Positions 33,757 to 60,696 of a stretch of DNA of 64,000 bases are shown here, piece after piece. Origin of the DNA: Candidatus Micrarchaeota archaeon (lineage in GTDB: Archaea > Micrarchaeota > Micrarchaeia > Norongarragalinales > SBBD01). The stretch covers positions 2,548-66,547 of the forward strand of contig JAZDGU010000029.1 in the NCBI GenBank assembly GCA_043806595.1, read 5' to 3'. Each line of letters begins with the position of its first letter. Positions within the stretch are counted from its first letter, which is position 1. Under the pieces are notes generated by a model. That model was not told where the DNA came from. It made no database searches and was given only the letters and a program-made list of their open reading frames with translations. Made by a program: the position numbers and the translations under genes.

Positions 33757-34395
33757 CTACTGGCACCGCATTGTTGAAATCATGTAGTCGACGAGGTCCA
33801 AGTCCGGCACCAGCGGCTCGGAAATTGCGGCCACCAGCACAACCCAGTTTGAGGGGCACTGCAGGTACGCCTGCCTGATGAAGATCCTCTCGTTCCCGTC
33901 AACGGGATTCTGCATGGCCATGGAGAGCACGTAAACCGTCCTGCCGTCCTGCGGGTATGATGCGAGCGACGCGTTCTCCTCGGCCGCTGCCTCGCCAATC
34001 TTGACATCGCTCAGCTCGCCGGATTCAACCACGCGCACGTCAATGATTTCCGCGGAATACGGCGGGTGGTATGCGGAGAACCTCACGCGCACTGAAGGGA
34101 AGGGGTCGAGGTCGGCGAGGTAGCCCTGCAGATACCGCAGGGAGAAGCTGTAGTTCTGGTCGAAGTATTCCAGCGAACGCGGGTCGTACTCGGCGGCAAG
34201 CAGAGAGACTTGGGCGGCCCTCGCGGCCCCCGCGTCGGGCTTGATGAACGGGAGCGTGGAGACGAATTTCGGCGGCTGGGGCGCGAGGAAGAGAAAATAC
34301 GCGCCAACCGCGAGAGCCACAATTAGGATGATGGTCCAGAACGCGTTCGCGGACGGCGACACCCTCTTTTCCCTTGCCACGAATATTCCCTCCAC
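33757..34395 (-). CDS. hypothetical N-terminally anchored extracytoplasmic protein (212 aa)
   Basis: Single N-terminal TM helix (FWTIILIVALAVGAYFLFLA) then a soluble domain. Likely operon with 33367-33753. Confidence 0.5.
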   Translation of the reverse strand: MEGIFVAREKRVSPSANAFWTIILIVALAVGAYFLFLAPQPPKFVSTLPFIKPDAGAARAAQVSLLAAEYDPRSLEYFDQNYSFSLRYLQGYLADLDPFPSVRVRFSAYHPPYSAEIIDVRVVESGELSDVKIGEAAAEENASLASYPQDGRTVYVLSMAMQNPVDGNERIFIRQAYLQCPSNWVVLVAAISEPLVPDLDLVDYMISTMRCQ

Positions 34396-42200: not shown

Positions 42201-45200
42201 CGGCTGCTGGTAGGGCTCGTAGCGGTTGGAGTAGCGCTGGTTGCTTGCGACTGCTATCTTGCGCGCCCACGCCGGCGGCACCTGGAAGAACGCGCCCGCC
42301 GGGACTATCGCGGCGAGCGAGCCCGCGGAGGTCTGCAGGGAGAATATGTAGGACGCCTGGTAGGGCGACTGCGCGAGATTCGAGAGGTCGCCGACCTGCG
42401 CGCCCTGCTCGAAGAGCATCGAGTCGCCGCTCGGCAGCTCGACGTACTCCGTTCCGTCGGGGTTCTCCTTGTGCAGGGTGCCCTTGGGGAACTGGAAGAC
42501 GAGCTCGACGGGAAGCGCGAGCCGCACTCCGTTCTTGACCTCGCCGACGTCGGGCAGGGCCTCGGTGGCGCTCACCTCGATTTCGTCGGACGAGCACGGC
42601 GACCCTCCGGCAGCCGTAGTCGCCTTGTAGGTGCCTGCCGCGGGGTAGCTGCATTTGATTGAACAGGAGCCTGTGGTGCCGGTGCAGTCCTTCGCGGTGA
42701 CGGTGCGACCGTTGCCGCAGTTGACTGGAAAGACGTTGGGGGCCTTGGGCAGGTCGTAGTAGCTTATCGTGAGGAGCGTGTTCTGGTTGCGGGAGAGCGT
42801 GGTCGGGTCCGCGGTTATGACGCACTGGGGCTCGGCCTCTGACAGCGGGTCCTCGTCTGGCTTGAGCACGTCGACCTGCACGGCACTGCATTGCGTGCCG
42901 GAGGCGGCTGCCTGGACGGCGTATGTGCCGTCCTGCTCGTAGTAGCACTTGGCCTGGCATGTTCCGGTGGTGCCGCTGCAGCCGGCGGCGTTCGCTGTCC
43001 TGCCGTTGCCGCAGTTGATGAGGAGCGCGTTGGGGGCGCGGGCGAGGTTGTAGTAGTTCGCCGTCACCATCGTGAACTCGCCTTCCTTTATCCTCGAGGG
43101 GTCGATGGTGAGCGCGCAGGAGGGGCGGGATGCCTGAACCTCCACGTATGCCGTCGTACATTCGACGCCGCCGGAAACCGCCAAAACCGTGAACTCGCCT
43201 GCCCGGGGATACCGGCATTTCGCCGAGCACGAGCCGGACTCGCCGGAGCATGAGACCGCGGAAACCTTCCTTCCGTTGCCGCACTCGATTTCGAAGGAGT
43301 TCGGGGAAGGCGAGAAGTCGGAGAAGGCGACGGTAACCGAGGATTCCTGGCCCTCGTCGAGGAGGGAAGGTTCGACGGTGAGGGCGCAGGACGGTTCGGG
43401 CAATGGCGTGGGGGTGACGGTGCCGCCCGAGCCGACGTCGCTGCAGCTGTCCGAGGAAGTGGCCGAATACGTCAGGGAGAGCTGGCGTTTGGAGGAGACG
43501 CCTTGCGTCGTTGCGATAAGCTTGAGCGTCGCGTTGCGCTCGTCCGGCTCGGTTTCGCAGGGGTCGACGGGCATCGCCTTGGCATAGACCCGAAACTCCG
43601 CTGAGCCGCCGCTGGGGACCACCACGGACAGGGGCTCGACGGAGAAAATCCTCGGGAGCGTGTTCTCCTGGTTGACGAGCAGCGGGTAAGGCGCGTCGTT
43701 GGTGACGGTTATCGACTGCATGTCGGACCTGACCTTCGGGGGCTGGAGGGCGAACTGCAGGGACTCGCTGGAGACCTGCCAGAGCGTGCCAAGCTCCTGC
43801 TGGACGAAAGAGGTCTTGACGGTGAACGGCACATATTCCTCCTGAGAGCTTCCGCCGAGCCTGGCGGAAATCCTGATGCGGCCGTTTATCTTCTCGGAGA
43901 CCGTCGAGGCGCGTTCGGCGATCTGGAGGACGGCATCGTCGATTTCGGCGGTCAGGCTCACGGTGCCGGACTGGCGCGCCTTCAACCGCAAGGAGAAGGT
44001 GTCGACGTTGATGCGGGTGTACTTTGGAATCTGCGAGAACTGCAGGGACATGGTCACGGGCACACTGTCCTCGAGGAGGTTGTTCACGGAGAACGCCTGC
44101 TGCTGGGGGTCGCGGGACTCGACGGCGAGGGCAAGGGCAGTTGAGTCGACTTCGACGAGCCTGACTGCGGAAACCAGGAGGGTGCCGCGCTTGGACTTGA
44201 AGCCCTCGGCGTCAATCTTGAAGGATACGTACCCCACGCTGACCGGCCTGATGCCCTCCGCGCGGTACGACGCGCTGCCGTCCCTGCCCTCGGTGTAGAC
44301 GCCCTCAACCTGCGCGCCCCTCAAGGCGTCCGAGCCGTCCCCGAGAACAACTGAAGCGTCCTTGACCGGGAGTCCGAGGGAGTCCGAGACCTTGAACGTT
44401 ACCACGCCGTCGGCAAGCGCCTGCAGCGACTTGGGCGAGTAGGAGACCTTCAGGTCGGGCTTGGTGCCGACGACGCGCGCCGCGAGATTGCGGGTCACCG
44501 TCGACTCGCCGAAGCGCGCCTGCAGCGTCAACGGGACGTCGTTTGAGAGGCGCTGAGCGCGGATTGAGAAGGTGCCGGCTGCGTTGTCATCGGAAGTGGT
44601 AAGCGATATCGCCTGCTCGTCGCCCTTGCGCGCACGCGCGCGGCTGTCACCGCTCACGCCCTCCTCGAGGGAAAGCGAGAGGTCGTCCGCGGGCGAGGTC
44701 AGCTCTATGACCGCGCCGCGTGGGGCCGCTAGCGTGAACTTGAGGGAGAACGTTTCGCCGGACTCCGCGGCGTAGTTGTCCGAGACCGTGCCGCCCCTGC
44801 CCTCGAAGTGAGACTCGAGGCAGACCTCGCCCTCGCAGATGCCGCCGAAGGAGAGGGGAAGCGACACGGAATTGGTTGCCGCGGAGAGGGCGTCGGGCCC
44901 GGCGACGGAGTCGACGGGGTCGCGGAGGATCTCGCGCGAGGTGTAGAACGCGGCGCGGTATTGGACGTTGACCGAGGCGCGGGAAAGCGGCCTGGTGCGT
45001 ATCTGAACGGACACCTCACGGGTGCCCTCGAAGGGCTGGAAGGTGAAGTCCGCGAACTTGTAGCCTTGCACGTCCTCGCCCGCCAGAAACAGGGCGGCGG
45101 CATTCCCGGCCGGGGTCGGCGTCGGGGTCGCGGTGACAGTCGCGGTAGGCTCCTCGCGCGAATACTCGGTGCCCTTGCGGACCACCGCGCTGCCGGAACC

Positions 45201-47240
45201 GTATCCGACTATTTCCGCGGTCTCGCTCTCGAGGGAGGAGTCCTCGTTCCCGATGCGGATGTGAGCCTGTATGCGGGAGACGGAGACCGGCGGCTTGGAC
45301 AGGACGAATCGCAAATTATAGACCGTCGAGGGGGAAAGAGAGGAGGCCTTGTTCCCGGTGAGGTCGTATGCCCCCTGGAACACGAGCTTTGCCCCCGAGA
45401 GCACGCCGACGGGCATCAGCTCGAACTCCTGCTTGTTGTTGACCCCGGGCTTGACCTCGAATTCCGAGGAAAGGAGGTCGTCGTAACCCTCGGCCTCGAC
45501 CCTGGCGGCATAGAAGCCCTCGAGGATCTTGAGGGAACACGCTCCCTTCGAGGTGGTGCAGGAGCCAGTTGCGGCAAACTCGCCCATCGAGGGCGAAAAC
45601 TCGACCCGGGCGCCGTCGATGGTCTTGTTCGTGAAATGGTCGCGGACCTTGACGGAGAGCTTGCCCGGCGCGGGCATGAGTAAGACGTGAAGGAGGTTGA
45701 CGTCCTCGGACTCGCCCGTTCCTTCGACAGTGAGGAGGACGGGCAGGCTGGAGCCGTTCCTTCCCGCGGCGCTCGCAACCGCGATGACCTCGTCGAGGGG
45801 CAGGCCGTCAAATCCCGTCGTGCCGTCCGCGCTCGTGTATTTCTCCGGGACCCCGGTCGGAAGGCCGTCCAAGTAGGAAAGGGATACGTATGCGGAGGGC
45901 ACGAACTCGCCGTTCTTGTCGGTGACCTCGACGACGGCCTTCGCCGAATTGTCCTTGCCGGCCTCCTCCAGCCTGACGGAATACGATTTGCCCTTCTCTG
46001 CGTCCATGATCCTGGCGGGAAGGAAGCCGTACTTGTAGACCGTGACGTAATATGAAGACCTTTCGAGGTCCTTGAAGACGGCGACGCCGTCCGAGGGTAT
46101 TTCCTCGCTTATCTTGGCGCCTTGCGGCTCATGCAGCCAGACCGAGGGATTGGAAAGCGAGCGGTTGTCGGAATCGAAGACGGCTACCGTAATCGAGCGG
46201 AGCTGTTCCTTTGAAACCTTCCTAAGAACCGCGTCGATGCCGGTCTCGGCCTGGACCTCGGTCTCCGCGGAAAGGAAGGCAGGATATCCTGCCGCCTTCA
46301 CGGAGACGTATATGGCCGTTCCTAGCTTGATTTCCTGCGAGGGCACGCCGCCGTCCGCGCCCGACTTGAGGTTCCGGAAGATCGTCTTGCCGGTGCCGGC
46401 CTCGCTTATTTCGATTGTGGCGTTCCCAATGCCCTCGCGGGTGTCCGAGTCGGTGACGCGGATGATAACGCGGCCGTTGACCGCGGACTGCTTCGGCGTC
46501 AGGCCGAAGGGCGGCAGGGTCTTGTCGCTTGAATCGACACGCACGTCGCGCGACTCGTCGTTGAAGCCCTCGGCCTGGACGACGACCTTGTAGGCGGTGT
46601 TCTGCTGGACGTCGAACGTGACAGTAGCCCCGGTCTTGGAATCGGCGATGGGAACGTATGTAGCGGTGTCGAAGAGCCAGAAGGTCGCGGACGAGGGCGG
46701 GGGCTCGACTGAAAGCGCGAGCGAAACAGTGGTCCTTGCGGGTTCGGGCGCGAGCCTGACGGTCACGAGGTTGTTCTCCGACTTCTTGCCGACGCTAACC
46801 CTCGAGCTGGCGCCCGAGTCGAAGGTGAGGGTGGAGCCGTCGAAGCCCGCGGCGGTGAGGGTGAGCTCGGCGCCTACGGGGGCCCCGGAGAAGTAGGCGA
46901 CGCCGTCGGAGCCCGTGGTGGCCTCCATGCGCTTCATGCCGTAGGCGTTCTCGGGGTCGGCGAGGAACACCCTCGCGTCTGACACCGGCAGGCCGTCGGA
47001 TGCGAGCAGCGTGACGGTGACGTCCGCGGTCTTGGGCTCGAATGCCTTCGTGCCGCCGAGCAGAAGGAAGGCGGCCCCGCCGAAAATCAGGAGAAGGATG
47101 AGCAGGAACACGGGCAGCGAGGGAAGGCCCTTCTCCTCGAGCCAGTCCGCGGCGTCCTTGAGGGGGAGGCCCTTGTCCGCGCACCATTCGAGAAAGCCCT
47201 GCCACTTCTCATTGACGGATTCGAAGAATTCCTCGAGCAT
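36267..47240 (-). CDS. giant membrane-anchored surface protein (3657 aa) with many beta-rich Ig/CarbopepD-reg-like repeats, three Cys-rich modules and a roughly 1000-aa non-repetitive C-terminal region
   Basis: Uninterrupted 10,974-nt ORF with host-like GC3. N-terminal signal-anchor LPSLPVFLLILLLIFGGAAFLLLGG. Start set at MLEEFF (47240) because the first in-frame codon (47417) would overlap the upstream Zn-ribbon ORF. Confidence 0.75.
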   Translation of the reverse strand: MLEEFFESVNEKWQGFLEWCADKGLPLKDAADWLEEKGLPSLPVFLLILLLIFGGAAFLLLGGTKAFEPKTADVTVTLLASDGLPVSDARVFLADPENAYGMKRMEATTGSDGVAYFSGAPVGAELTLTAAGFDGSTLTFDSGASSRVSVGKKSENNLVTVRLAPEPARTTVSLALSVEPPPSSATFWLFDTATYVPIADSKTGATVTFDVQQNTAYKVVVQAEGFNDESRDVRVDSSDKTLPPFGLTPKQSAVNGRVIIRVTDSDTREGIGNATIEISEAGTGKTIFRNLKSGADGGVPSQEIKLGTAIYVSVKAAGYPAFLSAETEVQAETGIDAVLRKVSKEQLRSITVAVFDSDNRSLSNPSVWLHEPQGAKISEEIPSDGVAVFKDLERSSYYVTVYKYGFLPARIMDAEKGKSYSVRLEEAGKDNSAKAVVEVTDKNGEFVPSAYVSLSYLDGLPTGVPEKYTSADGTTGFDGLPLDEVIAVASAAGRNGSSLPVLLTVEGTGESEDVNLLHVLLMPAPGKLSVKVRDHFTNKTIDGARVEFSPSMGEFAATGSCTTSKGACSLKILEGFYAARVEAEGYDDLLSSEFEVKPGVNNKQEFELMPVGVLSGAKLVFQGAYDLTGNKASSLSPSTVYNLRFVLSKPPVSVSRIQAHIRIGNEDSSLESETAEIVGYGSGSAVVRKGTEYSREEPTATVTATPTPTPAGNAAALFLAGEDVQGYKFADFTFQPFEGTREVSVQIRTRPLSRASVNVQYRAAFYTSREILRDPVDSVAGPDALSAATNSVSLPLSFGGICEGEVCLESHFEGRGGTVSDNYAAESGETFSLKFTLAAPRGAVIELTSPADDLSLSLEEGVSGDSRARARKGDEQAISLTTSDDNAAGTFSIRAQRLSNDVPLTLQARFGESTVTRNLAARVVGTKPDLKVSYSPKSLQALADGVVTFKVSDSLGLPVKDASVVLGDGSDALRGAQVEGVYTEGRDGSASYRAEGIRPVSVGYVSFKIDAEGFKSKRGTLLVSAVRLVEVDSTALALAVESRDPQQQAFSVNNLLEDSVPVTMSLQFSQIPKYTRINVDTFSLRLKARQSGTVSLTAEIDDAVLQIAERASTVSEKINGRIRISARLGGSSQEEYVPFTVKTSFVQQELGTLWQVSSESLQFALQPPKVRSDMQSITVTNDAPYPLLVNQENTLPRIFSVEPLSVVVPSGGSAEFRVYAKAMPVDPCETEPDERNATLKLIATTQGVSSKRQLSLTYSATSSDSCSDVGSGGTVTPTPLPEPSCALTVEPSLLDEGQESSVTVAFSDFSPSPNSFEIECGNGRKVSAVSCSGESGSCSAKCRYPRAGEFTVLAVSGGVECTTAYVEVQASRPSCALTIDPSRIKEGEFTMVTANYYNLARAPNALLINCGNGRTANAAGCSGTTGTCQAKCYYEQDGTYAVQAAASGTQCSAVQVDVLKPDEDPLSEAEPQCVITADPTTLSRNQNTLLTISYYDLPKAPNVFPVNCGNGRTVTAKDCTGTTGSCSIKCSYPAAGTYKATTAAGGSPCSSDEIEVSATEALPDVGEVKNGVRLALPVELVFQFPKGTLHKENPDGTEYVELPSGDSMLFEQGAQVGDLSNLAQSPYQASYIFSLQTSAGSLAAIVPAGAFFQVPPAWARKIAVASNQRYSNRYEPYQQPMADTAWELRFPVSLFMDFEPETEFTREGSLQTATVEDFDITIPASIRLTRQRDIGQRRASLPSNTPFRIQLTPFVSSRDAYEVYFPVEAVFLPQEFVRVKRDEFNGNKALQFRSGTTISLPADAVISTDSNDFKKITIPAGSAVRMPSPFAQQDPYGRLSMMLPFRVMFRIQKDEQVSVSVAQDGFTVSSISNDRSQLSFYGVARKGLKLPDSSYSVDVLPYTQMSLGPAEFGVYGSEKEIPAGFSLSLAPNVNVRNVPTSDAKLVEFANGARMLAEGASSSAETPQGTAKLEVHAGSMLTMDRRILKASESVRGQESFTVAFPAPSVWHFPRESNLVQNRIATTSYEATFPAGFTPQTQRKDSSFDVLLAANQPITFTTVDPELAMLQGMDFEFTLPFDVGVSVPQESLLGLKTDYWKDSPMESVRLSNPVTLTLSDPQTLDRFEADATRIMSKRTTEESFGSDPLEFTIPDNTLFVLRIAPTDMAQPKERFRIKGIFSEEVTYTLPATASEVDKVSRETDFNGACLSVQISRNGRKYGLKQVRKVIFPPSFRILTSAAAPAADGQEAPAAPVEVLVPKKEETVFVLCEKQTKGSMLLITDEAFPILLEGDLTFTFNNENSHLTQSQLLCVKNEGSSNREVRLEINTPLNSGLRLSGPQGWLEGPSIVSTKGDLDHAVKSITKKGAWLKELVSMRVNERNLAGEDPCPRQSFEVEVGVPEQFLDEYGCLKPEAFEEQSVEGKLIVFGVVRQGTVPAKDAPIRISFVDTGKCLGNLGKQLSAALNGFYVNYQQGQTNAKNGEPQVLVFKDVGHKRWLSMTNNYDEDLSLSYAAKSRDGSILASCDIPQALKAGTGYIAECTAEKAGEGFIEIRSVGAISTKPEQRRVAVIVGVGGKPLDETLKEFFPSSPMGDLVPQQTLTVPVPELASTDDAKKAAQEGGTGEPAGGGAAQTAGGVFLYFETPADGAGTPENAADALLASDAGATGAQSQGKLDALAGGTMQCQTNFCTGNGEQLQDAYKGFGAKLQEFVLKFYFDEKYPKEISTFCNPSEPRLVVHNRNGFYKSIIVQSANTRVSFNELQKSVDEGLGELRDASGEKYVEDFKWDTSGGISSCGIYIVTARLGLCKSPNSFPDKKAWLRSASIEMAVNPADPTQFKACEETLANAGLLTAEDPQIIVGREQVKANTKLPYFELRKPNDAAEAKSIFDKFKLIYFGSYRGGNSELDERNAQGLISALYGSSPNLFSYSPSYSDAGYCTKRLGAVTGSVMAASAPNLVIQGIMATFGVSYALKETVMGFASTLALCGSTSVVNVGNAVFKDANTCDAANACAQGASYYLLNTFTAYIPNFGLKPAEGVSAATMRNIGQAFSAKFLGARFASEFLTFTAFSAVFSGVEYVKGDDKVVAKPDLVLPAGKAFRSILPWGSTAWMAEQGTRYYGLSMGSAYDASIGLRNGIKEAERLGLGGDLSARTITKLVAKGKAAADFHELVKVKIPPNDPVIMDAMSDMLGRDAMEELFDKLADDTLQKSLNPVDNALYQRRMEQIVTSLRGTRSTKAGSTSLWADVVDSLTAAKGPRNGNFLHSGPWPAGISSEAQYLKEETLDHVLEHLRQRGDVATGTRKPFSFKGILKAESIVPADQYDDFLRKMTAKYPRLGTVQNAMSSIPDADVKFGRGATVTDRLLSRTRTLISGGNVKSEKPIIDITRNVLKSEGDDVAKAAKTTGGFFKQFTNAGSRFKSMFAPAKIPRLVGTIVAVLGPILTYADLRPVRAELDYRYGNHVVVFNNPTLDNAPDPVTSVKEICTRDEASKTVCLNRVDANALCPRTKPFCFYFIKGPEYAGVPQYDLLTAFNGRQATQAIAESFFAASKPVQTDSFSVTEAVVTSSALPGYSALEGAGVPVSDEQSGPQTPVPLSEAATNLLARYKEWCDGYQCPPEVVKSIEEAEKLVDQGNDAGYRKALEFLNEALRAQAATSG
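42570..43400 (-). repeat. three tandem Cys-rich modules of about 85-95 aa (about 270 nt each) inside the giant gene
   Basis: Protein repeats SCALTVEPS...IECGNGRKVSAVSCSGESGSCSAKCRYPRAGEF, SCALTIDPS...INCGNGRTANAAGCSGTTGTCQAKCYYEQDGTY and CVITADPT...VNCGNGRTVTAKDCTGTTGSCSIKCSYPAAGTY. Consensus C..(T/I).P......I.CGNGR....C.G..G.C..KC.Y...G.Y. Confidence 0.6.
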
Positions 47241-47320
47241 GCGGATTATCGGAAAGATAGGGCGAAAACACTTATTTAAATACCATCGTAGCGGCCAAAT
47301 GGAAAAAATTCGCGTCCTGC

Positions 47321-47656
47321 TCAGCGGACCCTCCGCTGGAGAGGCAGGACCGAACCGCACTTCCTGCAGACCTTCTCCTTGTGCTTCCAGTTCAGTTCGA
47401 AGTCCGTGCCTCCGCACTCGGGGCAGGCGCGTATCTCGCTCTTGTGGAAGTCCATCCAGCCCTCCTTGCCGTCGCGGCCGGCGAAGGACTGGTGGGAGAA
47501 GGCGACGCGCTCGCGGCGGTCGGTCAGCTGGGGCTTGTCGTCATCGAACTTCTTCTTCTCGACGGCGGGCTTGACCTTGCGGCTGGAGCACCGCGGGCAG
47601 ATGACCGCATCCTCGGCCTCCCAGTGCAGCGAACAATTGTCGCAGGCGTATTTCAT
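47321..47656 (-). CDS. double zinc-ribbon protein (111 aa)
   Basis: CDNC...CPRC and CPEC...CRKC pairs. 80 nt upstream of the giant gene on the same strand. Confidence 0.5.
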   Translation of the reverse strand: MKYACDNCSLHWEAEDAVICPRCSSRKVKPAVEKKKFDDDKPQLTDRRERVAFSHQSFAGRDGKEGWMDFHKSEIRACPECGGTDFELNWKHKEKVCRKCGSVLPLQRRVR

Positions 47657-53005: not shown

Positions 53006-56000
53006 TCAGAGCCGCTCGCGCAGCCTCCTGAGGGCCTCGGCGGCGGAAAACCGGGGAGCCGCCTTCACACCATCCTTCGCATTGCCCGCTTGTACGACGC
53101 CCCCGGGCGGGTTTTCGGCCCGCCGGGCGGAAATGTACACCGCGGCGCCGACAATCAATGCCAGGAGGACGAACGCCAGCCACGAATATTGCATGTAGTC
53201 GAACCCCGCACGTGCCTGCTTCTCCTTCAACAGCCGCTCGTATTCGCGCCGTATCGCGTCCTCGTCGTCGGGGTCGATTCCCATGGACTGCAGGTTCCGG
53301 ATGACCTTGAGCCGGTCCTCCGCGGAAACGTCCCCGAGGTTCAGCCTCGTCCAAACGGCTTCAATCTCGGGAGGGATATATCCGCCGTTCCAGTCCGCCC
53401 AGTCGAAGGTGGGCTCGGGGGTGGGGGTGCCGTCGGGGCCACTGGTGCCGTTGCCGCCGCCCTCGCCGTTTCCGTTACCGTTCCCGTCGGGGCCCCCGCC
53501 GGGCGGCGTTGCAGTCGGGGTTGGAGCAGCGGGGGGAGGGGTGGGCGTGGGCAGGTCGGGCGGTTCGATGATTGAGCCGGTGCCGAGGACGAATGTGAAC
53601 GCGCCCGTGCGGTTCACCGTCTCGTTCCAAGCCTCGGCGTAGGGCCCGAGGTAGTATGTGAACGTGTGCGGCGTGGACAAAACCATGAGCCCCGAATTGT
53701 CCATTTTCTCGCGGAGGGTCAGGGGGGCAGTGCCGTTCGCGAGGAGGATGACGTTCTCGACAGGCCTGCCTGAGACGTTGTAGACCGCGGCGTAGCCGGT
53801 AGCCGGCGATCCGTTGGAATACCTGAACCTCGCCTCGACGTCCCAGTCGAACCCAATCCATGCCGCGGGGTCCAGCGAATAGCGGACCGACGCGGAGCGG
53901 ATGTTGACGAAAGCCATGCTGGACTGGAACGCGAGCCGCGCGTCCAGCGCGTTTGAGGTGAAGGAGGGGCTGCGGGCGGTGATGCAGGGGCCCGAAGGGC
54001 AATCAATGGCGGAGGAGTGGTTGAAGAAAGTGGTGTTCGGGAAGACGTTCGAGCCGGTGCCCCCCCATTCCGACACTCCGTAGGCGTTGCTCCTGAACGC
54101 GTTGCTCTGGAAGACGTTCCGGTTGGACGAGCTGAGCGATGTCCCCCTCTGGGCGCCGGAGACGGAATTCAGCGAGAACAGGCTGTCCGCCGACCACACG
54201 GAAGAGATGCCGGTGCCGCCCTTCATGGCGAAGGCGTTGTTCGAGAACGTGTTGAAGCGGGAGTGGTCCGTGGAAAGCCCCACCGTCGGATCCGCGTAGT
54301 TGGCGTTGGTCGCAGTGAACCTGCAGTTGCTTATGCGCACGCCCTTCCTGCCGGAGACGTTCGCGCCGATCCGCGGAAACGACACGGAATAGCCGGCGCA
54401 GTCAAGGGACGCGTTGTCCGCGGCGAACTCGAAGCAAGGGGCGTTGCCGGGGGCCGTCACGCTCCGTGCGAGGGCGTAATTGCCGGCGGAAGAGAAAGTT
54501 GTGCATGACGAAACCTGCGAGGCGTTGGGCGGCGGGGGCGGCGCCACCGGAGTCCCGGTGCCCCAGGAGAAATTGAATATGCCGGAGCGGTTGACGGTGG
54601 TGTTCCACTGCTCGGTCCTGCCGCCGAGGGTGAAGTCGAAGCGGTGCGGAGTCTGGTTGGTCACATACGCCCAGCTCACACTGCAGCTCGTCCACCGGTA
54701 GGTCTTCTGCCTGAGGCGGAACGCCGCGGTGCCGTTGGCTCCGGTCTGGGCGCCTCCGGCTGCAGCGCCCTGCAGGTCGTGGACCAGCGCGGCGGCGTCA
54801 ACCGGCATGCCTGTAGTGGAGTTCGAAAGGTTTGCGACCGCGTGCCAGTCGACGTAGATGTACACCGGCGGGTTGCCGCCGTACGGGGCGCATAGGCACG
54901 GAATTGATACCTTGGGCTCGCCGGTCAAGGCGTTGAATATCGTAATGTTGGAGGTGAGGGTAGAACTGACGTCTATCCTGTTGTTGAGGAAAGAACAGTT
55001 GTTGATATCAATGGTGGTCAAAGCTAGCACTATGGCCTTCCCGGCGTTCGCGAACGAAGAGCGGGAAATCCGGCCGGTACTGCCCCAGTCATAGCCCGAA
55101 AGCGCATAGGAGTCGTAGTCCGTGAAATCCGAAAAGGTGTTCAGGTCGATGGTGACCGACGACACTCTAGAGACATGCAAGCCGTTCTGCCCGCCCGTGA
55201 AATGATTCCCCGTAAGATTGACGCCAGAGGACCGGTAGATAAGGCCGCTATTTCTTCCTCCGGAAACGCGGTTGCCCACGAACGCGAGCGCGTTGATGTT
55301 GCTGAAATTCAGGCCCGTTGTCTGCGATTTCAGCGAGAGGTTGTTCGCGGTCGCAGTCAAGCCCGTGACGTTGACGAAGTCGAGCGCGTAGGAGTATGTT
55401 ATGTTGGCTGAGGCAGAGAGGTTGCAGTTCGATACCGAGACGTTGCGCCGGTTGTTGGCCCTCACACCGACGTTGTAGTATTCGGCTTTGAATCCCGCGC
55501 AGTCGAGATGGACGTTGTCCGCGGTGATGGTGAAGCACGTCCCGTAATCGGAGGACACGTCGCGCACGAGGACGTAGGAGCCCGGCGCGCCCAACGTCCC
55601 GCAAGCATACACTGGGATGCAGGGCGGGTTCTGCTGAGTGCAGTCCGGGGATTCGAGGACGTTGACTGCTGCCACGCCCGAAACCGCACCGAGGCGCGCC
55701 GTGACCGTGCCATTCGAGGGGGTAGCGCCCGCGGTGAAGAGGCCGGATTGGGTGACTGAGCCGGTGGTGGAGGACCACTCAAGCGGGGGGCAGGCGACGT
55801 TCGACCCGCATTCGTTCGTGCAGGTGGCGGTGAACTGCTGGCTCGCGTTGACGAGGACGTTCGCGGGATCGGGGCTAACGGAAATCCGCGTGATCGCCGG
55901 CTGGGATCCGCCGACGCCGGTGAAACCGTAGTAATTCGTCATGACCAGCGCCCCTCCGGCGATCGCGGCACCCGCTCCATCAGAGGGATTGGAGAGCTGC

Positions 56001-57079
56001 GCCGACTGGCCGATGACGCTCCCGTTTGAAGCCGAAAGGCGCGTCACCCTGAAAGCCGGGCTGTTGTAGTCGCCGGGGAAACACTCCGTCACAACCTCGT
56101 CCTGGCCTTGGAGATAGAACGAGAAATAGGCGCACTTGATGTTGCTGTTCACCCAAACCAGCTGGCCGCTGGAGGAATCGAGCGCGCGCGGCCTGAAGTC
56201 GCCCCTGGGGCCGGAGACGGTGTACAGCCGGCCGCCGTTCTCGGACATGTAATAGCCGCTGCCGTTGACCGGCCCCCAAATCCTCCCGCTGCCGTCCGCG
56301 GCATAGGCGGCAATCTGCTCGATGTAGGGCGGGTGCGTCACGTCTCCCCTAATGCCCCCGAGGAAAATCTTGTCCCCCGAGGAAAGGATCTGCACGGGCG
56401 AGAACCGCGTGTCGTGCAAGGGCACCTGCCAGGCAGTGACCCCGGAATCCTTGTACAAAGCGACGAGGTAGCCGCTCCTCGTGAAGACGAGCACGTTGCC
56501 GGAGACCACTGGAGGGGCGTTGCCGATCGTGGAGGACGTCGCGGTCCAGATGAACTCCTTGGAGACCGTGTCGAAAGCCCGGATCTCGATGGAGTTGTAC
56601 CGCGGGAAGAACACGTAAACCCGGTTCCCCTCGGCGGCGAGCATGGGGGTCGCGCCGGAACCCTCCCCGAGGTAATACTCCTCGCCGAACCACAGCCGGT
56701 CGGTCAGCTCCTGCAGGTAATAGCTGTAGTAATAGTTCTTATGGGTAACCGAATAAACGTTCCCGCCGGCGGTCACCAAACCGGTGGGCGTCCGGTCAAG
56801 GCGGCATGCGCGCGAATCCTTGACGCTCCCGCACGCAACGTCCACCTTCTGCCAGCGGCAGTTCGACCCATCAAGCGTGAAAAACTCCTTTCCGGAAGGC
56901 GCCTCGACGGGACTCGATGCGCTCCAGGTCTTTTGCCACATCACGTAGGACATGTTCAAGGGCGCCGCGGTCGCAACCGACGGATTGCGCTGGCTGCCGG
57001 AGAAGGCCTGGTCCCATATCGCGTTGGAGCACGCCACCGACGCCAAAAGGAAGAGGATTGCTGCGAGCCGCCGGGCCAT
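53006..57079 (-). CDS. large secreted surface protein (1357 aa): signal peptide, PQQ-like beta-propeller, Ig-like (Big_2) domain, parallel beta-helix (NosD/CASH) repeats, Thr/Pro-rich and GNGNG linker, C-terminal TM anchor
   Basis: Signal peptide MARRLAAILFLLASVACSNA. PQQ-type repeats (VYVFFPRYN..., LVALYKDSGVTAWQ). PbH1 repeats (NNLSLKSQTTGLNFSNINALAFVGNRVSGG...). PTPTPPPAAPTPTATPPGGGPDGNGNGNGEGGGNG low-complexity linker. C-terminal helix WLAFVLLALIVGAAVYI plus a 45-aa cytoplasmic tail. Confidence 0.75.
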   Translation of the reverse strand: MARRLAAILFLLASVACSNAIWDQAFSGSQRNPSVATAAPLNMSYVMWQKTWSASSPVEAPSGKEFFTLDGSNCRWQKVDVACGSVKDSRACRLDRTPTGLVTAGGNVYSVTHKNYYYSYYLQELTDRLWFGEEYYLGEGSGATPMLAAEGNRVYVFFPRYNSIEIRAFDTVSKEFIWTATSSTIGNAPPVVSGNVLVFTRSGYLVALYKDSGVTAWQVPLHDTRFSPVQILSSGDKIFLGGIRGDVTHPPYIEQIAAYAADGSGRIWGPVNGSGYYMSENGGRLYTVSGPRGDFRPRALDSSSGQLVWVNSNIKCAYFSFYLQGQDEVVTECFPGDYNSPAFRVTRLSASNGSVIGQSAQLSNPSDGAGAAIAGGALVMTNYYGFTGVGGSQPAITRISVSPDPANVLVNASQQFTATCTNECGSNVACPPLEWSSTTGSVTQSGLFTAGATPSNGTVTARLGAVSGVAAVNVLESPDCTQQNPPCIPVYACGTLGAPGSYVLVRDVSSDYGTCFTITADNVHLDCAGFKAEYYNVGVRANNRRNVSVSNCNLSASANITYSYALDFVNVTGLTATANNLSLKSQTTGLNFSNINALAFVGNRVSGGRNSGLIYRSSGVNLTGNHFTGGQNGLHVSRVSSVTIDLNTFSDFTDYDSYALSGYDWGSTGRISRSSFANAGKAIVLALTTIDINNCSFLNNRIDVSSTLTSNITIFNALTGEPKVSIPCLCAPYGGNPPVYIYVDWHAVANLSNSTTGMPVDAAALVHDLQGAAAGGAQTGANGTAAFRLRQKTYRWTSCSVSWAYVTNQTPHRFDFTLGGRTEQWNTTVNRSGIFNFSWGTGTPVAPPPPPNASQVSSCTTFSSAGNYALARSVTAPGNAPCFEFAADNASLDCAGYSVSFPRIGANVSGRKGVRISNCRFTATNANYADPTVGLSTDHSRFNTFSNNAFAMKGGTGISSVWSADSLFSLNSVSGAQRGTSLSSSNRNVFQSNAFRSNAYGVSEWGGTGSNVFPNTTFFNHSSAIDCPSGPCITARSPSFTSNALDARLAFQSSMAFVNIRSASVRYSLDPAAWIGFDWDVEARFRYSNGSPATGYAAVYNVSGRPVENVILLANGTAPLTLREKMDNSGLMVLSTPHTFTYYLGPYAEAWNETVNRTGAFTFVLGTGSIIEPPDLPTPTPPPAAPTPTATPPGGGPDGNGNGNGEGGGNGTSGPDGTPTPEPTFDWADWNGGYIPPEIEAVWTRLNLGDVSAEDRLKVIRNLQSMGIDPDDEDAIRREYERLLKEKQARAGFDYMQYSWLAFVLLALIVGAAVYISARRAENPPGGVVQAGNAKDGVKAAPRFSAAEALRRLRERL

Positions 57080-57224
57080 AAGTGAACTACTGCGGCGTAT
57101 TAAAAAACGATGCCTGCGGCGAGGGGTCCGGACACCGTCCGGCAGATGCCCCGCGCGCCCGAAACCCCGTCTCCCGCCGCGAACGGTTTTTAAGGGATTC
57201 CCCGCTAATGCACGCATGTTCCTC

Positions 57225-57899
57225 TTCGACAACGTGCTCAAGCTGCTGGCGAAGGTCTTCCGGGTGGTGAACCGGCGGAGGTCGGTGGCCATCACGTTCC
57301 TCGTCGGGTCGCCGCTCACAGTCTACTGGTTCCGGACGATATGGCTGGAGCAGCCGTTCACGATGCAGGTGGTGGCGGTGTACAGCCTCGTCTTCCTGCC
57401 CTTCCTGCTCTACAAGGCGCTGCTGTACTTCTTCCTTTCCCTCTTCGATACCGTCGTGATATTCTTCGCGGACTACACGAAAAGCTACGACGTCGACTTC
57501 GAGAAGGTTCGCGCGCGCGTCGCCAAGATACTCGTCGAGAAGAACGTAAAGTACCAGTCGCTCGACAGCATGGCTCTCGGCGCGGAAAGGGGCCTCCTTG
57601 AACGACTGCGCGGCTGGCTCCACATAAAATACCCGCTCATCTTCGTCTGCGCCGACGACCCGTTCGTTGTAATAAAGATATTCAAGTCCCTCGGCTCGCC
57701 GCGCATCCAGGACCTCAAGCACCAGATTACGCACAAGGAGGCCATCAGCGTCAAGATATTCTTCGAGGAGGAACCGAGGGCGCGCGTGCTCGCCAAGCTG
57801 ATAATGAACTCGCTGGAGGTGCTCAACACCGACCAGAGGGAGGCCGAGCCCCCCGGAATTGCAGTGCAGGCGATCCAACTCTCCGACGAGGGCAGGTGA
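57225..57899 (+). CDS. hypothetical membrane protein, paralogue A (224 aa), unrecognised family
   Basis: N-terminal TM helices, then cytosolic motif EKVRARVAKILVEKNVKYQSLDSMALGAERGLL...PLIFVCADDPFVVIK. Start at first Met after the divergent intergenic region. Confidence 0.5.
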   Translation, partial: FDNVLKLLAKVFRVVNRRRSVAITFLVGSPLTVYWFRTIWLEQPFTMQVVAVYSLVFLPFLLYKALLYFFLSLFDTVVIFFADYTKSYDVDFEKVRARVAKILVEKNVKYQSLDSMALGAERGLLERLRGWLHIKYPLIFVCADDPFVVIKIFKSLGSPRIQDLKHQITHKEAISVKIFFEEEPRARVLAKLIMNSLEVLNTDQREAEPPGIAVQAIQLSDEGR

Positions 57900-58480
57900 G
57901 CATGGGCACCCTCCGTTTAGCGGTCAAGGCATGTTCGGCGCTGAATTCGCGGCCTGTGACGATAATCCTCATTGTCGCGGGATTCGTGATCAGCATACTC
58001 GCCTTCCCGAAACTCTATTCGGACGGGCTCTCCCGCAAGGAGGCCTTCGCGGAAGTCCTTTTCATTTTCGTGCCCCTTCTCTTCGGGAAGCTCACCAGCC
58101 TCACGCTCCTCTCGTTCGTCGACTTCACGCTCGGCAAGAGCCAGGAATCGTACCGGTACCGGCTCAACATCGAGAAAGCCCGAGCGCGCGTGATAAGGAT
58201 CATGGTCGAAAAGAAGGTGAGGAGCTATTCGCTCGATTCCATGGCGTTGGGAAGCGAGAGGCTGTTCCTCACCGCCGCGGCGTACATCCTGCACGCGGCC
58301 GGGGTGAAAGGCGAGCCGCCCCTCGTCATCGTCGGAGAAAACCCATTCGTGCTTGTGCGGATGCGCCGCCAGCCCGTGGCCGCGGACGAGGAAGAGGGGA
58401 TCAGCGCGCAGCTCCACTACGACGACCAGAAGGGCCAGGTGCTCTCCAAGCTGATTTCAAGCACGCTCGGCGCGCCGTAG
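57896..58480 (+). CDS. hypothetical membrane protein, paralogue B (194 aa), unrecognised family
   Basis: Shares EKARARVIRIMVEKKVRSYSLDSMALGSERLFL...PLVIVGENPFVLVR with paralogue A. GTG start overlapping A's stop (ATG 6 nt later). Confidence 0.5.
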   Translation: MSMGTLRLAVKACSALNSRPVTIILIVAGFVISILAFPKLYSDGLSRKEAFAEVLFIFVPLLFGKLTSLTLLSFVDFTLGKSQESYRYRLNIEKARARVIRIMVEKKVRSYSLDSMALGSERLFLTAAAYILHAAGVKGEPPLVIVGENPFVLVRMRRQPVAADEEEGISAQLHYDDQKGQVLSKLISSTLGAP

Positions 58481-58548
58481 CCGGTAAACCCGCGGTTGAT
58501 TCGGCTTCTACCCACGTAATATTAGCCTCTCCGCCGACTGGGAATCGC

Positions 58549-59694
58549 ATGGAAGAGCTGGGGTGGGCGACATTCGGAAACCCCTCGGCAGGCTATTCCG
58601 TCGGGAAGGCCTTCGACTTCAGCGCCGCGGAGCTGCGCGCATTCTCCTCGGCCATGTCCGAGCTGAGGGAAGGCGCCCCAGGGGAGCCGACCGCTTTTGC
58701 CGCGGTGGTGTCCGCGTGCGAGAAATTGGAACTCCCCCTTTCAAGAGCCCGCGCGGAGCTGGTCGCGCAAGCCGCGGAGCTCAACCTGAATGGCTCCGGA
58801 ATCCTCGGCCTGCTGATGGACGACGAGGACATCGAGGAAATCGCCGTCATCGGGATAGGAAAGCCCGTCCGCGTCTACCTGCGCGGCCGCGGATGGCGGG
58901 AGACCGACTGCATGCTCGCCAGCGAGGAATTCGCGGTCAACGCCGTCAACTCGATTGCCCGGCCGCTCGGCCGCAGGCTCACATATTCCAGCCCGCGGCT
59001 TAACGCCGGCATGCGAAATATGAGGCTGCACGCGAGCATGCCCCCGCTTTCGCGCGAAATAGAGATAACCATCCGCAAGTTCACAGCGAAGCCGATGCCC
59101 ATGGCGGAGCTGGTCGGGCGCGGCATGCTTACAGCGGAACAGGCCGAATTGCTGGGCAGAGCGGTGGCCCGCGACACGTCGGTCCTCGTAGCCGGGAACA
59201 CGGGCAGCGGGAAGACCACGCTCCTCAACGCGCTATTCGAGGCCGTGCCGCGCCACGAGAGGATAATCCTCATCGAGGAGACGCCGGAACTCCGGCTGCC
59301 GCACGAGCACTTGGTCGGCATGGTAAGCCAGAAGGAGCTCGGGATTTCCATGGCGTCGCTTGTCGAGGACAGCCTCCGCATGCGGCCGGACCGCGTCGTC
59401 ATCGGGGAGGTGCGCGCGCCCGAGGAGGTCAGGGCGCTCTTCGACTCCCTGCTGGCGGGGCAGGCCAAGTCCGCGTATTCGACGTTCCATGCGAATTCCG
59501 CGGCGGAGTCCTTGGAGAGGCTGGTCTCCCTCGGCGCCCGCAGGGAAGAGCTCGACTCGCTCGGGCTCATCGTGGTGTGCAAGCGGGCGACAATCCCGGG
59601 ACCGCAGGGAGTGCCGGCGGCCGAGTCGCGGCGCGTTACGGAGATTGCGGAGGTCAGGAAGGGCAGGGCAAGGAGGCTATCCGCCCGCAGGTGA
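58549..59694 (+). CDS. type II/IV secretion-system family ATPase (VirB11/CpaF/FlaI-like)
   Basis: Walker A VLVAGNTGSGKTTLLNAL, Asp box RIILIEETPEL, Walker B DRVVIGEVR, His box AYSTFHANSA. N-terminal 170 aa not recognisable. Confidence 0.75.
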   Translation: MEELGWATFGNPSAGYSVGKAFDFSAAELRAFSSAMSELREGAPGEPTAFAAVVSACEKLELPLSRARAELVAQAAELNLNGSGILGLLMDDEDIEEIAVIGIGKPVRVYLRGRGWRETDCMLASEEFAVNAVNSIARPLGRRLTYSSPRLNAGMRNMRLHASMPPLSREIEITIRKFTAKPMPMAELVGRGMLTAEQAELLGRAVARDTSVLVAGNTGSGKTTLLNALFEAVPRHERIILIEETPELRLPHEHLVGMVSQKELGISMASLVEDSLRMRPDRVVIGEVRAPEEVRALFDSLLAGQAKSAYSTFHANSAAESLERLVSLGARREELDSLGLIVVCKRATIPGPQGVPAAESRRVTEIAEVRKGRARRLSARR

Positions 59695-60696
59695 CTCCCA
59701 GCAGACCTTCTCCTCGTCAATCCTCACGCGCTGGCTCGGCGCCCTCCCCAGGCCGCATCTGCTGGAGAGCTGGAAAAGGCCGGTCAGCGCAATCATGCCG
59801 CCGTTGTCCCCGCAGTAGTCAAACGGCGGGACGCCGAACTCCGACTTGTGCTCGGCAGCTACCAGGGAAAGCATTTCCGCAAGCCGCTTGTTGCGCGCGT
59901 TCCCCCCGACAAGGAGCACCTGCCGTTTCTTGGAGACTACGAGTGCCTTCTCCGCGGTTTCGCATAGCATGGAAAACGCCGTCTCCTGCACGGAATAGCA
60001 CAAATCCGCGGCCGCAGCGCCGCGAAGCCTGCGCGCCGCGGTCAGCATGCCCGCAAAGGAAAGGTTCATGCCCTTGACGGAATACGGCAGGTCGAGCATG
60101 GTTCTGCCTTTGGCGGCTGCCTTGAGCACCCCCACCGCATCCGGAGGGGAAAGCCCGAGGTCCCTTCCGACGAGGTCCAGCAAATTCCCGAGGCCGATGT
60201 CCAAGGTCTCCCCCAGAACGCGGTACCGCATCGAGCCGCGCCTGCCTTCCAGCACGAGCAGCTGGGTGTTGCCGCCGGAGACGTACGCGACGAGCGGGTC
60301 GTGCAGGCCGCAGAAGAACCTGCCTACCTCGACGTGCGCGAGGGCATGGTTGACGCCGACGAGCGGGATGCCGAGGGATTCCGAAAACGCCCTTGCCGCG
60401 ACGTGGCCCACGTGCAGCGAGTGCCCCAGCCCGGGGCCGTAGGAGTAAGCCACGCCGTCCAAATCCCGGGGGGAGATTTTCGCCCGCTCCAGCGCCTCTA
60501 CGGCCACGGACCTGAAGTGCAGGGCATGGTGGTCCGCGAGCTTGCGCGGGATGAATCCCTCGCGGAGCGAGGGGAATTTCGCCGAGGAATTCGAGAGGAT
60601 TGAGGTCGAGCGCTTGGAGTAGGGCGTGCGTGGGTCGCCACTTGCCACTGCGACGCCGAAGGTGTGCGCGGTGCACTCGATGCCGAGGATTATCAT
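59677..60696 (-). CDS. kae1: tRNA N6-adenosine threonylcarbamoyltransferase Kae1
   Basis: MIILGIECTAHTFGVAV..., metal-binding HxxxH context HVAARAF and ASKL-fold motifs. 18-nt convergent overlap with the ATPase gene. Confidence 0.85.
   Translation of the reverse strand: MIILGIECTAHTFGVAVASGDPRTPYSKRSTSILSNSSAKFPSLREGFIPRKLADHHALHFRSVAVEALERAKISPRDLDGVAYSYGPGLGHSLHVGHVAARAFSESLGIPLVGVNHALAHVEVGRFFCGLHDPLVAYVSGGNTQLLVLEGRRGSMRYRVLGETLDIGLGNLLDLVGRDLGLSPPDAVGVLKAAAKGRTMLDLPYSVKGMNLSFAGMLTAARRLRGAAAADLCYSVQETAFSMLCETAEKALVVSKKRQVLLVGGNARNKRLAEMLSLVAAEHKSEFGVPPFDYCGDNGGMIALTGLFQLSSRCGLGRAPSQRVRIDEEKVCWESPAGG

Follow-up and report, generated by a model that had tools for sequence, protein, structure and literature searches.

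A Tad/CpaF-like ATPase of Micrarchaeota encoded next to tandem paralogues of a small predicted membrane protein family

In the stretch of Micrarchaeota DNA analysed here (64 kb, referred to as the window), the gene of a secretion-type ATPase is preceded by two tandem genes, par1 and par2, that encode paralogous small membrane proteins. The order and strand of these genes, with an optional gene for a surface protein of ~800 aa between par2 and the ATPase gene, were retained in all seven independent loci that are long enough to show them. Our preferred interpretation, to which we assign a probability of about 45%, is that the locus represents a lineage-specific variant of the archaeal Tad/Epd-type type-IV-filament ATPase module in Micrarchaeota, with non-canonical membrane neighbours, in which the par pair would dock or regulate the ATPase. 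Conserved gene order is the only evidence that links the pair to the ATPase, and functional coupling of the two appears plausible.

Gene organization and promoter-like boxes

A first-pass annotation of the window had described three open reading frames. All three were found on the plus strand, but the start of par1, previously set at 57225 (224 aa), had to be relocated (Table 1). The GTG start codon of par2 overlaps the TGA stop codon of par1 as GTGA, as had been noted before; the ATG at 57902, which is in frame and lies two codons downstream of the GTG, would be an alternative start. BLASTP analysis revealed 28% identity between Par1 and Par2 across 199 residues (E 4e-20), demonstrating that the two are true paralogues. 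The signature EK.RARV..I.VEK.V...SLDSMALG.ER...PL..V...PFV occurs in both proteins, and the tandem paralogy initially proposed is thus well founded.

Table 1. Features of the par1-par2-ATPase locus (positions within the window)
Feature	Coordinates	Strand	Description
Context gene	53006..57079	-	1357-aa surface protein, divergent from par1; membership in the system uncertain; based on Pfam and termini
TATA-like box TTTTTAA	57187..57193	+	AT-rich, centred ~26 nt upstream of the par1 ATG; read from sequence
par1	57216..57899	+	227-aa membrane protein; ATG at 57216; 100% identical to NCBI protein P0001 (227 aa)
par2	57896..58480	+	194 aa; paralogous to Par1, architecture as in Par1
TATA-like box TAATATTA	58517..58524	+	AT-rich, ~28 nt upstream of the ATPase ATG, within the 68-nt par2-ATPase gap
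T2SSE ATPase	58549..59694	+	ATG at 58549; 381 aa; identical to NCBI P0041

A box of the TTTTTATA type is located at equal distance from par1 in all six orthologous loci and is a putative promoter; its position suggests that the par1-par2 transcript is leaderless. The AT-rich box ahead of the ATPase gene has similar counterparts in loci L007, L009, L001, L002, and L005. Because of the TATA-like box in the par2-ATPase gap, the ATPase gene may form a transcription unit of its own. Since a separate TATA-like box accompanies the ATPase gene in every locus and the par2-ATPase gap can accommodate a further gene, the three genes do not constitute an obligate operon.

The par family and its predicted fold

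Neither Par1 nor Par2 matched Pfam (none at E ≤ 1), NCBIfam, PHROG, PADLOC, or PDB sequences, in agreement with the initial statement that the family is an unrecognised one. An exhaustive profile search of 1.84 billion proteins yielded about 29 genuine clusters, and every named cluster belongs to Micrarchaeota. A metagenome scan using the par1 alignment retrieved four loci only, and no relative was found in IMG/VR. Judged from these searches, Par1 and Par2 represent a previously undescribed, small family that is restricted to Micrarchaeota. Orthologues of the two proteins shared 47-78% identity and had conserved motifs in common. An origin from a defence system or a virus was rejected based on the negative PADLOC, PHROG, and IMG/VR results for the par proteins; the ATPase gave generic P-loop matches only.

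In a confident AF2 model of Par1 (pLDDT 89), an amphipathic helix is followed by a membrane hairpin of two helices and by an α/β domain. The basic amphipathic helix spans residues 2-18 and is followed by a transmembrane helix (21-38), a long hydrophobic helix (48-84) with the conserved residues P62, K67, and D78, a KA1/TBP-like α/β domain (~87-210), and an acidic tail. As the proteins have a basic N-terminus and two transmembrane helices, the α/β domain of ~120 aa was placed in the cytosol, on the same side as the ATPase, and both proteins are predicted to adopt an N-in/C-in topology. By structural superposition, the C-terminal domain shows the KA1/TBP-like arrangement, in which two helices pack against the same side of an antiparallel sheet of 4-5 strands. 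A Foldseek comparison of the Par1 model with the PDB produced no match that was significant over the full length (best E 0.08). Domains of this α+β type (KA1 of MARK/BRSK/Chk1, AMPK α-CTD, METTL16 VCR, DUF3568, DUF302, and domain IV of PGM/PMM) share only 3-20% identity with the par domain, and the likeness is therefore one of fold only. None of the solved KA1-type matches combines a par-like membrane hairpin with a KA1-like domain, and no profile similarity was detected between the par family and the PGM/PMM protein encoded next to par in the single-copy loci.

The ATPase and conservation of the locus

The ATPase carries a Walker A motif (GNTGSGKT, residue 216), an Asp box (IILIEETPE, 239), a Walker B motif (RMRPDRVVIGEVR, 277), and a His box (TFHA, 312). 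With all four motifs and a match to PF00437 (T2SSE; E 1e-36, 126.8 bits against a cutoff of 24.9), its proposed assignment to the FlaI/CpaF/VirB11 superfamily was substantiated. The best NCBIfam match was TadA-like TIGR03819 with 176.5 bits, which is below the curated cutoff of 373, and the PDB matches were 2oap (1e-31), CpaF (2.5e-29), and FlaI (1e-23). By sequence comparison, the protein is a member of the Tad/CpaF/Epd-like group and closest to Tad/CpaF and archaeal GspE2. The N-terminal 170 aa had been described as divergent, which was an overstatement: the alignments to CpaF (residues 62-328) and to afGspE (81-327) extend over their N-domains, so that a canonical N-domain is present, and only the first ~60 residues are lineage-specific. 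This segment also occurs in T2SSF-linked ATPases of Micrarchaeota.

The ATPase had further been called intact, which holds for the core motifs but not for the C-terminus. A tail of ~70 aa that is carried by all five orthologues is absent, the sequence breaks off within a conserved strand (GRARRLSARR* compared to GKARILFAYD in the orthologues), and kae1 abuts the gene. A frameshifted tail was rejected since tblastn with the orthologue tails detected no remnant in any frame. The loss could impair the window ATPase. Together with the missing platform genes, a protein that stops in this way might be a decaying relic, leaving nothing functional to explain. We consider this very unlikely, as all catalytic motifs are intact in an open frame of 381 codons, both par genes are likewise intact, six other loci have kept full-length orthologues, and VirB11-type enzymes function with short C-termini (HP0525 has 330 aa).

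As the first-pass annotation had stated, such ATPases are normally encoded beside genes for platform proteins of the FlaJ/TadC type (T2SSF). Using an iterated T2SSF HMM, two half-size T2SSF genes were found downstream of related ATPase genes in 62 of 80 genome loci fetched by an ATPase-alignment scan (with few close Micrarchaeota loci among the matches listed), and also in L008, where a Micrarchaeota ATPase 46% identical to that of the window is followed by two ordinary T2SSF genes. This is in accordance with the literature on archaeal ATPases (PMC4858521; bioRxiv 10.64898/2026.04.22.720090). At L010, neither T2SSF nor par genes occur near a related ATPase gene. With the same HMM, no match was obtained in the 64-kb window, in L001-L007, or in L009, that is, within 8-10 kb of the par-linked ATPases. 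A scan of the window ORFs for class-III signal peptides gave nothing credible. The locus thus lacks platform genes and appears to lack pilin genes, as reported initially, and T2SSF genes are missing from the orthologous loci as well. The small ORFs downstream of the ATPase gene in related loci are not pilin-like, and no prepilin peptidase (Peptidase_A24) was present among the called neighbours of the loci orthologous to that of the window. The sole polytopic membrane ORF in the 64 kb (22564-23985, 473 aa) has many hydrophobic segments and is probably SecY-like. Genes for T2SSF, pilins, and prepilin peptidase could be located elsewhere in this genome.

The seven loci that retain the gene order are the window, L001, L002/3/4 (L096 being a metagenome copy), L005, L007, L009 (identical to L094), and the 25,291-bp contig of P0161 and P0090, which presumably lie together on it. 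The inserted gene for the ~800-aa surface protein is present in L001, L002, and L005. Upstream, the cluster is flanked by either carA or three Tricorn-like genes, and downstream by kae1, by small ORFs and ftsZ, by an SLT gene, or by a small membrane ORF and alaS. Between L002-4/L096, L001/L005, and window/L007/L009, both flanks are replaced with the order kept; within the last group, conservation around the cluster extends to carA, kae1, and polD, which are unrelated neighbours. In a neighbour-joining tree of the ATPases, five of the six par-linked ATPases fall into a clade of 17, with L009/P0130/P0092 close by. The par1 clade is sister to the par2 clade, and an orthologous par2 is located 3' of par1 in every locus.

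All paired par members examined were linked to an ATPase gene and all single members examined were not. Four more distant, single-copy par homologues had no ATPase gene within 6-8 kb; three of them are preceded by glmS, a glmU-like gene, and a PGM/PMM gene, and the fourth is located between the genes for S17e and PCMT. On one contig of 1.23 Mb, a single par homologue is separated by ~800 kb from an ATPase gene whose product is 47-48% identical to that of the window. The gene-neighbourhood analysis suggested along with the first-pass annotation came out in favour of a conserved linkage of the par pair to this ATPase clade, which probably goes back to just one ancestral event within one lineage of Micrarchaeota.

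Possible roles of the par pair and related systems

According to the preferred reading of a variant Tad/Epd-type module, a sub-clade of the ATPases would be flanked by the bicistronic par1-par2 instead of the two adjoining half-size T2SSF genes, and the pair would have been born by duplication inside the small Micrarchaeota-only family. Each protein would lie on the membrane with its amphipathic helix, insert the two-helix hairpin, and expose the KA1/TBP-like domain to the cytosol. As the mechanism that we consider most likely, Par1 and Par2 would form a membrane heterodimer whose cytosolic domains may serve to dock the hexameric ATPase at the membrane, to position it there, or to regulate it. 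Their role would be comparable to that of PilM/GspL, FlaX/FlaH, or TadZ elsewhere, or possibly to that of the platform itself. ATP hydrolysis might then be coupled to the assembly or export of envelope components that are encoded elsewhere or next door, for example large, C-terminally anchored surface proteins.

Counting against coupling, the linkage may reflect one ancestral event followed by inheritance. The par proteins would then be a general, perhaps envelope-related membrane family of Micrarchaeota, and the orphan ATPase would work in trans with T2SSF platform proteins, pilins, and a prepilin peptidase whose genes lie elsewhere. This reading is possible but doubtful to us. It is in line with the single-copy homologues that occur in housekeeping contexts without an ATPase gene, with the promoter-like box of the ATPase gene itself, with the likewise conserved carA, kae1, and polD, and with L010, whose ATPase gene has neither kind of neighbour. 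As argued by Makarova et al. 2016 (PMC4858521), ATPase/TadC modules of archaea may operate in trans with pilins encoded elsewhere, which also favours mere synteny. However, the par1-par2-ATPase order outlives the replacement of both flanks, the pair is ATPase-linked in each of the informative loci, the par duplication coincides exactly with the linkage, and the usual T2SSF pair is absent from precisely the par-linked ATPase clade.

It is also conceivable that a Par1/Par2 heterodimer has replaced TadB/TadC (EpdJ/EpdK), resulting in a T4-filament-like or novel export machine without a GspF-family protein. Proteins of the GspF/PilC/TadB family (T2SSF) are mostly cytosolic, with a cytosolic domain of ~110-125 aa and few transmembrane helices. 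The par proteins resemble them in these respects, two paralogous small membrane proteins are present where relatives of the ATPase have two paralogous half-size T2SSF proteins, and no T2SSF gene lies within 8-10 kb in any par-linked locus. Such a replacement is nevertheless unlikely, given an hhalign probability of 0.25% for the par family against 18 DPANN T2SSF halves and an α/β, KA1-like fold as opposed to a helical bundle. In addition, the pair is located upstream of the ATPase gene and the T2SSF pair downstream, no pilin gene was detected in any par-linked locus, and the single-copy relatives operate without an adjacent ATPase. Similarly, we see little likelihood for a minimal membrane machine of a new type, in which a Tad-type ATPase and an unrelated two-TM, KA1-like heterodimer in place of the universal GspF/TadC platform would have been combined in one Micrarchaeota lineage. 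Such a machine might help these episymbionts to assemble their envelope or surface proteins or to contact their hosts. Micrarchaeota are DPANN episymbionts whose host-contact surface machinery is, to our knowledge, largely unknown. Finally, Par1 and Par2 might be TadB/TadC/FlaJ halves, or pilin-like subunits, of such extreme divergence that sequence methods missed them, as their position beside a Tad-like ATPase, the hydrophobic N-terminal region, and a superficially pilin-like long helix followed by a β-sheet domain could suggest. This identity is close to refuted and is given hardly any weight here: split platform halves were rejected because of the missing PF00482 match, the hhalign result, and the confidently modelled α/β fold, and pilins or pseudopilins because of the two-TM hairpin and because no class-III cleavage motif [KR][GA] is conserved before the hydrophobic segment.

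Among known systems, the ATPase is nearest to the motors of the archaeal 'System 1'/Epd-like and bacterial Tad systems (EpdL or TadA/CpaF with EpdJ/EpdK or TadB/TadC; CpaF 2.5e-29, afGspE 1e-31), which likewise have two paralogous small membrane proteins beside the motor. The par locus differs from these in that the neighbours are not T2SSF and are located upstream rather than downstream, in that pilin and prepilin peptidase genes were not detected in the locus, and in the lower score (176 versus a cutoff of 373 bits) and absent C-terminal tail of the window ATPase. PilM/N/O, GspL/GspM, FlaX/FlaH, and TadZ are small membrane-anchored proteins, often in tandem paralogous pairs (PilN/PilO, GspL/GspM), which keep the ATPase tethered or organised at the membrane. 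Their likeness to the par proteins would be a functional analogy only, as no sequence or fold match was found. PilN/O and GspL/M possess a single transmembrane helix and periplasmic ferredoxin-like domains, whereas the par proteins are predicted to have a cytosolic domain. VirB11-type ATPases, with their short C-terminus, belong to the same superfamily and function in the absence of a GspF-family platform. However, the window ATPase scored 127.9 bits with TIGR02788, below the equivalog cutoff of 249.95, the genes called in the orthologous loci included no VirB4-, VirD4-, or relaxase-type Pfam families, and the flanks consist of housekeeping genes and not of a mobile element. Likewise, the score against archaellum FlaI (NF058587) was 107.9 bits compared to a cutoff of 550, and no fla genes are present in the loci.

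By the definition used in current surveys of archaeal type-IV filaments (PMC4858521; bioRxiv 10.64898/2026.04.22.720090), every system includes a TadC/FlaJ platform, pilins, and a peptidase in addition to the ATPase. This definition does not cover a conserved clade of ATPases whose constant neighbours are a different, duplicated membrane pair. If the pair is the membrane partner of the ATPase, the motor could be re-plugged into a non-homologous membrane module, and an unannotated family would gain a function. If it is not, the pair defines a small, Micrarchaeota-specific membrane family with a confident fold prediction, and attention is drawn to 'orphan' Tad-like ATPases that are likely missed by locus classifiers requiring a platform gene.

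Besides its Sec signal and C-terminal transmembrane anchor, the surface protein that is divergently encoded from par1 contains a β-propeller, a Big_2 domain, and two NosD/β-helix regions. It displayed no significant similarity to the ~800-aa insert protein of L001, L002, and L005; the design of a signal and a C-terminal anchor is common to both.

The par genes and the adjoining ATPase

The window carries two tandem genes for small membrane proteins, par1 and par2, followed by a gene for a secretion-superfamily ATPase. The products of par1 and the ATPase gene are 100% identical to NCBI Micrarchaeota MAG proteins on an 87.5-kb contig. The three open reading frames of the first-pass annotation were borne out, except that its start for par1 (57225) is placed three codons too far downstream. 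As it had proposed, par1 and par2 are tandem paralogues (28% identity, E 4e-20) with overlapping stop and start codons, and the signature quoted for them occurs in both. An antisense ORF inside the ATPase gene, favoured by a naive GC3-based gene picker, was rejected as an artefact of high-GC codon structure.

Features of the window within and around the par-ATPase locus
Feature	Position	Strand	Remarks
par1	57216-57899	+	227 aa
par2	57896-58480	+	194 aa; GTG start overlaps par1 TGA
ATPase	58549-59694	+	381 aa
kae1	59677-60696	-	convergent; overlaps ATPase 3' end
Antisense ORF	58875-59720	-	281 aa; GC3 0.86
Surface protein	53006-57079	-	1357 aa; divergent from par1
Spacer, par1/surface protein	57080-57215		136 nt
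TATA-like box, par1	57187-57193	+	~25-26 nt from ATG
TATA-like box, surface protein	57098-57107	-	~25 nt from ATG
AT-rich box, ATPase	58517-58524		TAATATTA
Polytopic membrane ORF	22564-23985		
Small ORF	33367-33753	-	128 aa
Small ORF	33757-34395	-	212 aa
Giant ORF	36267-47417	-	3716 aa; GC3 0.84

The ATPase belongs to a known superfamily (PF00437, E 1e-36), of which it is an unexceptional member. Its best NCBIfam match is the TadA-like TIGR03819 (176 bits vs a cutoff of 373); TrbB, VirB11 and FlaI models also match, all far below their own cutoffs. Matches in the PDB are archaeal GspE (2oap, 1e-31), CpaF (2.5e-29), FlaI (1e-23) and VirB11 (3e-19). Relatives at E <= 1e-20 form >5,800 clusters, the best 120 of which share 41-61% identity with the window ATPase, the named ones being nearly all from Micrarchaeota. 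Of the N-terminal 170 aa described as divergent, only the first ~60 residues are unusual, and these are common to other Micrarchaeota ATPases whatever their partner; the remaining N-domain aligns to CpaF and afGspE. Many Micrarchaeota T2SSE ATPases of 529-581 aa (41-51% identity to that of the window) carry 4Fe-4S ferredoxin domains (PF00037/PF12838), among them P0062, P0072-P0074, P0105, P0114, P0116, P0122-P0126 and P0156; we know of no description of such a fusion.

Neither par1 nor par2 matched Pfam, NCBIfam, PHROG, PADLOC or PDB sequences. When 1.84 billion cluster representatives were searched exhaustively with an HMMER profile, 30 proteins were recovered, one of them a repeat artefact; the others have 113-251 aa, two are fragments, and all named members are from Micrarchaeota, in agreement with the view that the family is unrecognised. 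An AlphaFold2 model built from a 36-sequence alignment was confident (pLDDT 89.4, pTM 0.80) and displays an amphipathic basic helix (residues 2-18), a TM helix (21-38), a 37-residue hydrophobic helix (48-84; conserved P62, K67, D78) and an α/β domain (~87-210). From the basic N-terminus and two membrane helices, both termini are predicted to lie inside the cell (N-in/C-in), which would place the conserved domain in the cytosol. The family tree pairs the par1 clade with the par2 clade as sister groups and puts every other member outside both, which points to a single duplication within the pair-bearing lineage.

Gene order and platform partners

In all loci carrying the pair, par2 comes after par1, and the ATPase gene lies downstream on the same strand wherever the contig reaches far enough; in L006, L095 and L097 the contig ends too early. 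The order is par1, par2, ATPase, kae1 in L007, with carBA in front and polD further downstream in L009 (= L094). An ~800-aa surface protein gene is inserted between par2 and the ATPase gene in L001 and L005, which start with carA, and in L002-4 and L096 (same lineage), where Tricorn-like genes precede par1 and alaS comes after the ATPase gene. P0161 and P0090 are presumably linked as well, judging solely by the equal length of their contigs (25,291 bp). The differing flanks and the inserted gene indicate that the par1-par2-ATPase order survives both flank replacement and insertion. In an NJ tree, which is star-like, five of six par-linked ATPases fall into one clade of 17, with the L009 group nearby. 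The carB gene of L005 (5509-8689) is seemingly split in two (596 and 409 aa), and within the carB region of L007 (3884-8768) lie an uncalled gap and a LAGLIDADG-like ORF, which may point to an intein or a homing endonuclease in this carbamoyl-phosphate synthase.

Loci encoding related ATPases were retrieved from DPANN archaea and bacteria, 80 in all, and scanned with an iterated HMM of the T2SSF platform family. Matches were obtained in 62, several of the remainder being truncated contigs, and also in L008, supporting the statement that such ATPases normally adjoin platform genes. In the great majority, two half-size T2SSF genes lie directly downstream of the ATPase gene, the Tad/Epd or 'System 1' layout (PMC4858521; bioRxiv 10.64898/2026.04.22.720090), which L008, encoding a Micrarchaeia ATPase with 46% identity to that of the window, follows exactly. 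In contrast, par-linked ATPases have the par pair upstream, and no T2SSF, pilin, peptidase or VirB4-type gene occurs in any par-linked locus retrieved. Within the window, too, nothing matched T2SSF and no ORF had a credible class-III signal peptide; the sole polytopic membrane ORF is putatively SecY-like. Thus, three genes, paralogy, ATPase motifs and missing platform and pilin genes together confirm the original observation, with caveats on the ATPase N-terminus and tail.

Two neighbouring small ORFs of the window lack any Pfam match, and each has a hydrophobic segment at its N-terminus; the 128-aa product starts MRGNISIAVAVLLLF..., near the archaeal class-III (prepilin) signal pattern, but fails it. 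Another 'orphan' Tad-like ATPase (528 aa, 47-48% identity to that of the window) is encoded at 7001-8587 of L010 (1.23-Mb contig, GCA_053535615.1), with neither T2SSF nor par genes within 7 kb; this locus is syntenic with L008.

Possible roles of the par pair

On the reading that the data support best (probability roughly 0.45), this duplicated, lineage-specific membrane pair has become the constant companion of a Tad/Epd-type ATPase stripped of linked platform genes, and probably serves as its partner in the membrane. Par1 and Par2 would form a heterodimer, with the KA1-like domains on the cytosolic side serving to tether the ATPase hexamer or to regulate it. The pair may replace the platform or supplement one encoded elsewhere; full replacement is doubtful. 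That the proteins are themselves an unrecognised T2SSF or pilin is essentially excluded by an hhalign probability of 0.25% against 18 DPANN T2SSF halves and by the lack of a prepilin cleavage motif conserved across the family. The ATPase had been called intact, and its Walker A, Asp, Walker B and His boxes are all present, but it lacks the ~70-aa C-terminal tail found in 5/5 orthologues, stopping inside a conserved strand (GRARRLSARR* vs GKARILFAYD; 3' end near 59664-59694), and no remnant occurs in any frame. Decay of the ATPase in this particular genome is nevertheless very improbable.

The main rival, inherited synteny without coupling, is less likely than membrane partnership yet a serious contender. 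The unrelated neighbours carA, kae1 and polD are also partly syntenic across par loci, and part of the adjacency could be plain inheritance; against this, the three-gene order outlasts replacement of both flanks and a gene insertion. The reading as a membrane machine is limited by these neighbours, by the separate promoter-like box of the ATPase gene, and by single-copy relatives. The four more distant par members examined are single genes (L091 8001-8639, L092 8001-8636, L093 8001-8675, L098 8001-8567), and no ATPase is encoded within 6-8 kb of them. P0166, P0035 and P0039 directly follow a conserved row of glmS, glmU-like and PGM/PMM (glmM-like) genes, with thrS opposite, and P0026 lies between genes for ribosomal protein S17e and a PCMT methyltransferase. 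P0166 is ~800 kb from the T2SSF-less, par-less ATPase of L010 (47-48% identity to that of the window) on the same 1.23-Mb contig. PGM domain IV has a TBP-like fold, as is predicted for the par family, and PGM/PMM adjoins three single-copy par genes; hhalign shows no homology between them.

As far as profile libraries and two surveys show (PMC4858521; bioRxiv 10.64898/2026.04.22.720090), neither the par family nor its constant association with a Tad-like ATPase lacking a platform has been described. They offer the DPANN cell-surface field a concrete, testable lead, whose basis is gene order within a single lineage and which meets counter-evidence in the wider family.

Promoter-like boxes and surface proteins

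In every locus a TTTTTATA-type box precedes the ATG of par1 by ~26 nt, which suggests a leaderless par1-par2 transcript. The ATPase gene is preceded by its own AT-rich box and is therefore probably a separate transcription unit. In the window, two back-to-back TATA-like boxes occupy the spacer between par1 and the divergent surface protein gene, suggesting that the latter transcript is leaderless as well. The 1357-aa protein comprises a Sec signal, a PQQ-like β-propeller, Big_2, two NosD/β-helix regions, a Pro/Thr-rich linker and a C-terminal TM anchor; it is not homologous to the ~800-aa protein encoded inside the cluster in four loci. Such large C-terminally anchored proteins are candidate clients or co-components of the par/ATPase module. 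Very large surface proteins are typical of DPANN archaea, and the giant ORF, with coding-like GC3 and an N-terminal hydrophobic segment, presumably encodes one. Upstream of the ~800-aa protein gene, just 3' of a TTTTTAT box, a ~23-nt motif, TTACCACTA(T/G)(C/T)AAGTTATATCA, is kept in three divergent loci (L001 ~11500-11557, L002 ~11490-11530, L005 ~11520-11573) and could represent a 5'-UTR or an element with a regulatory role.
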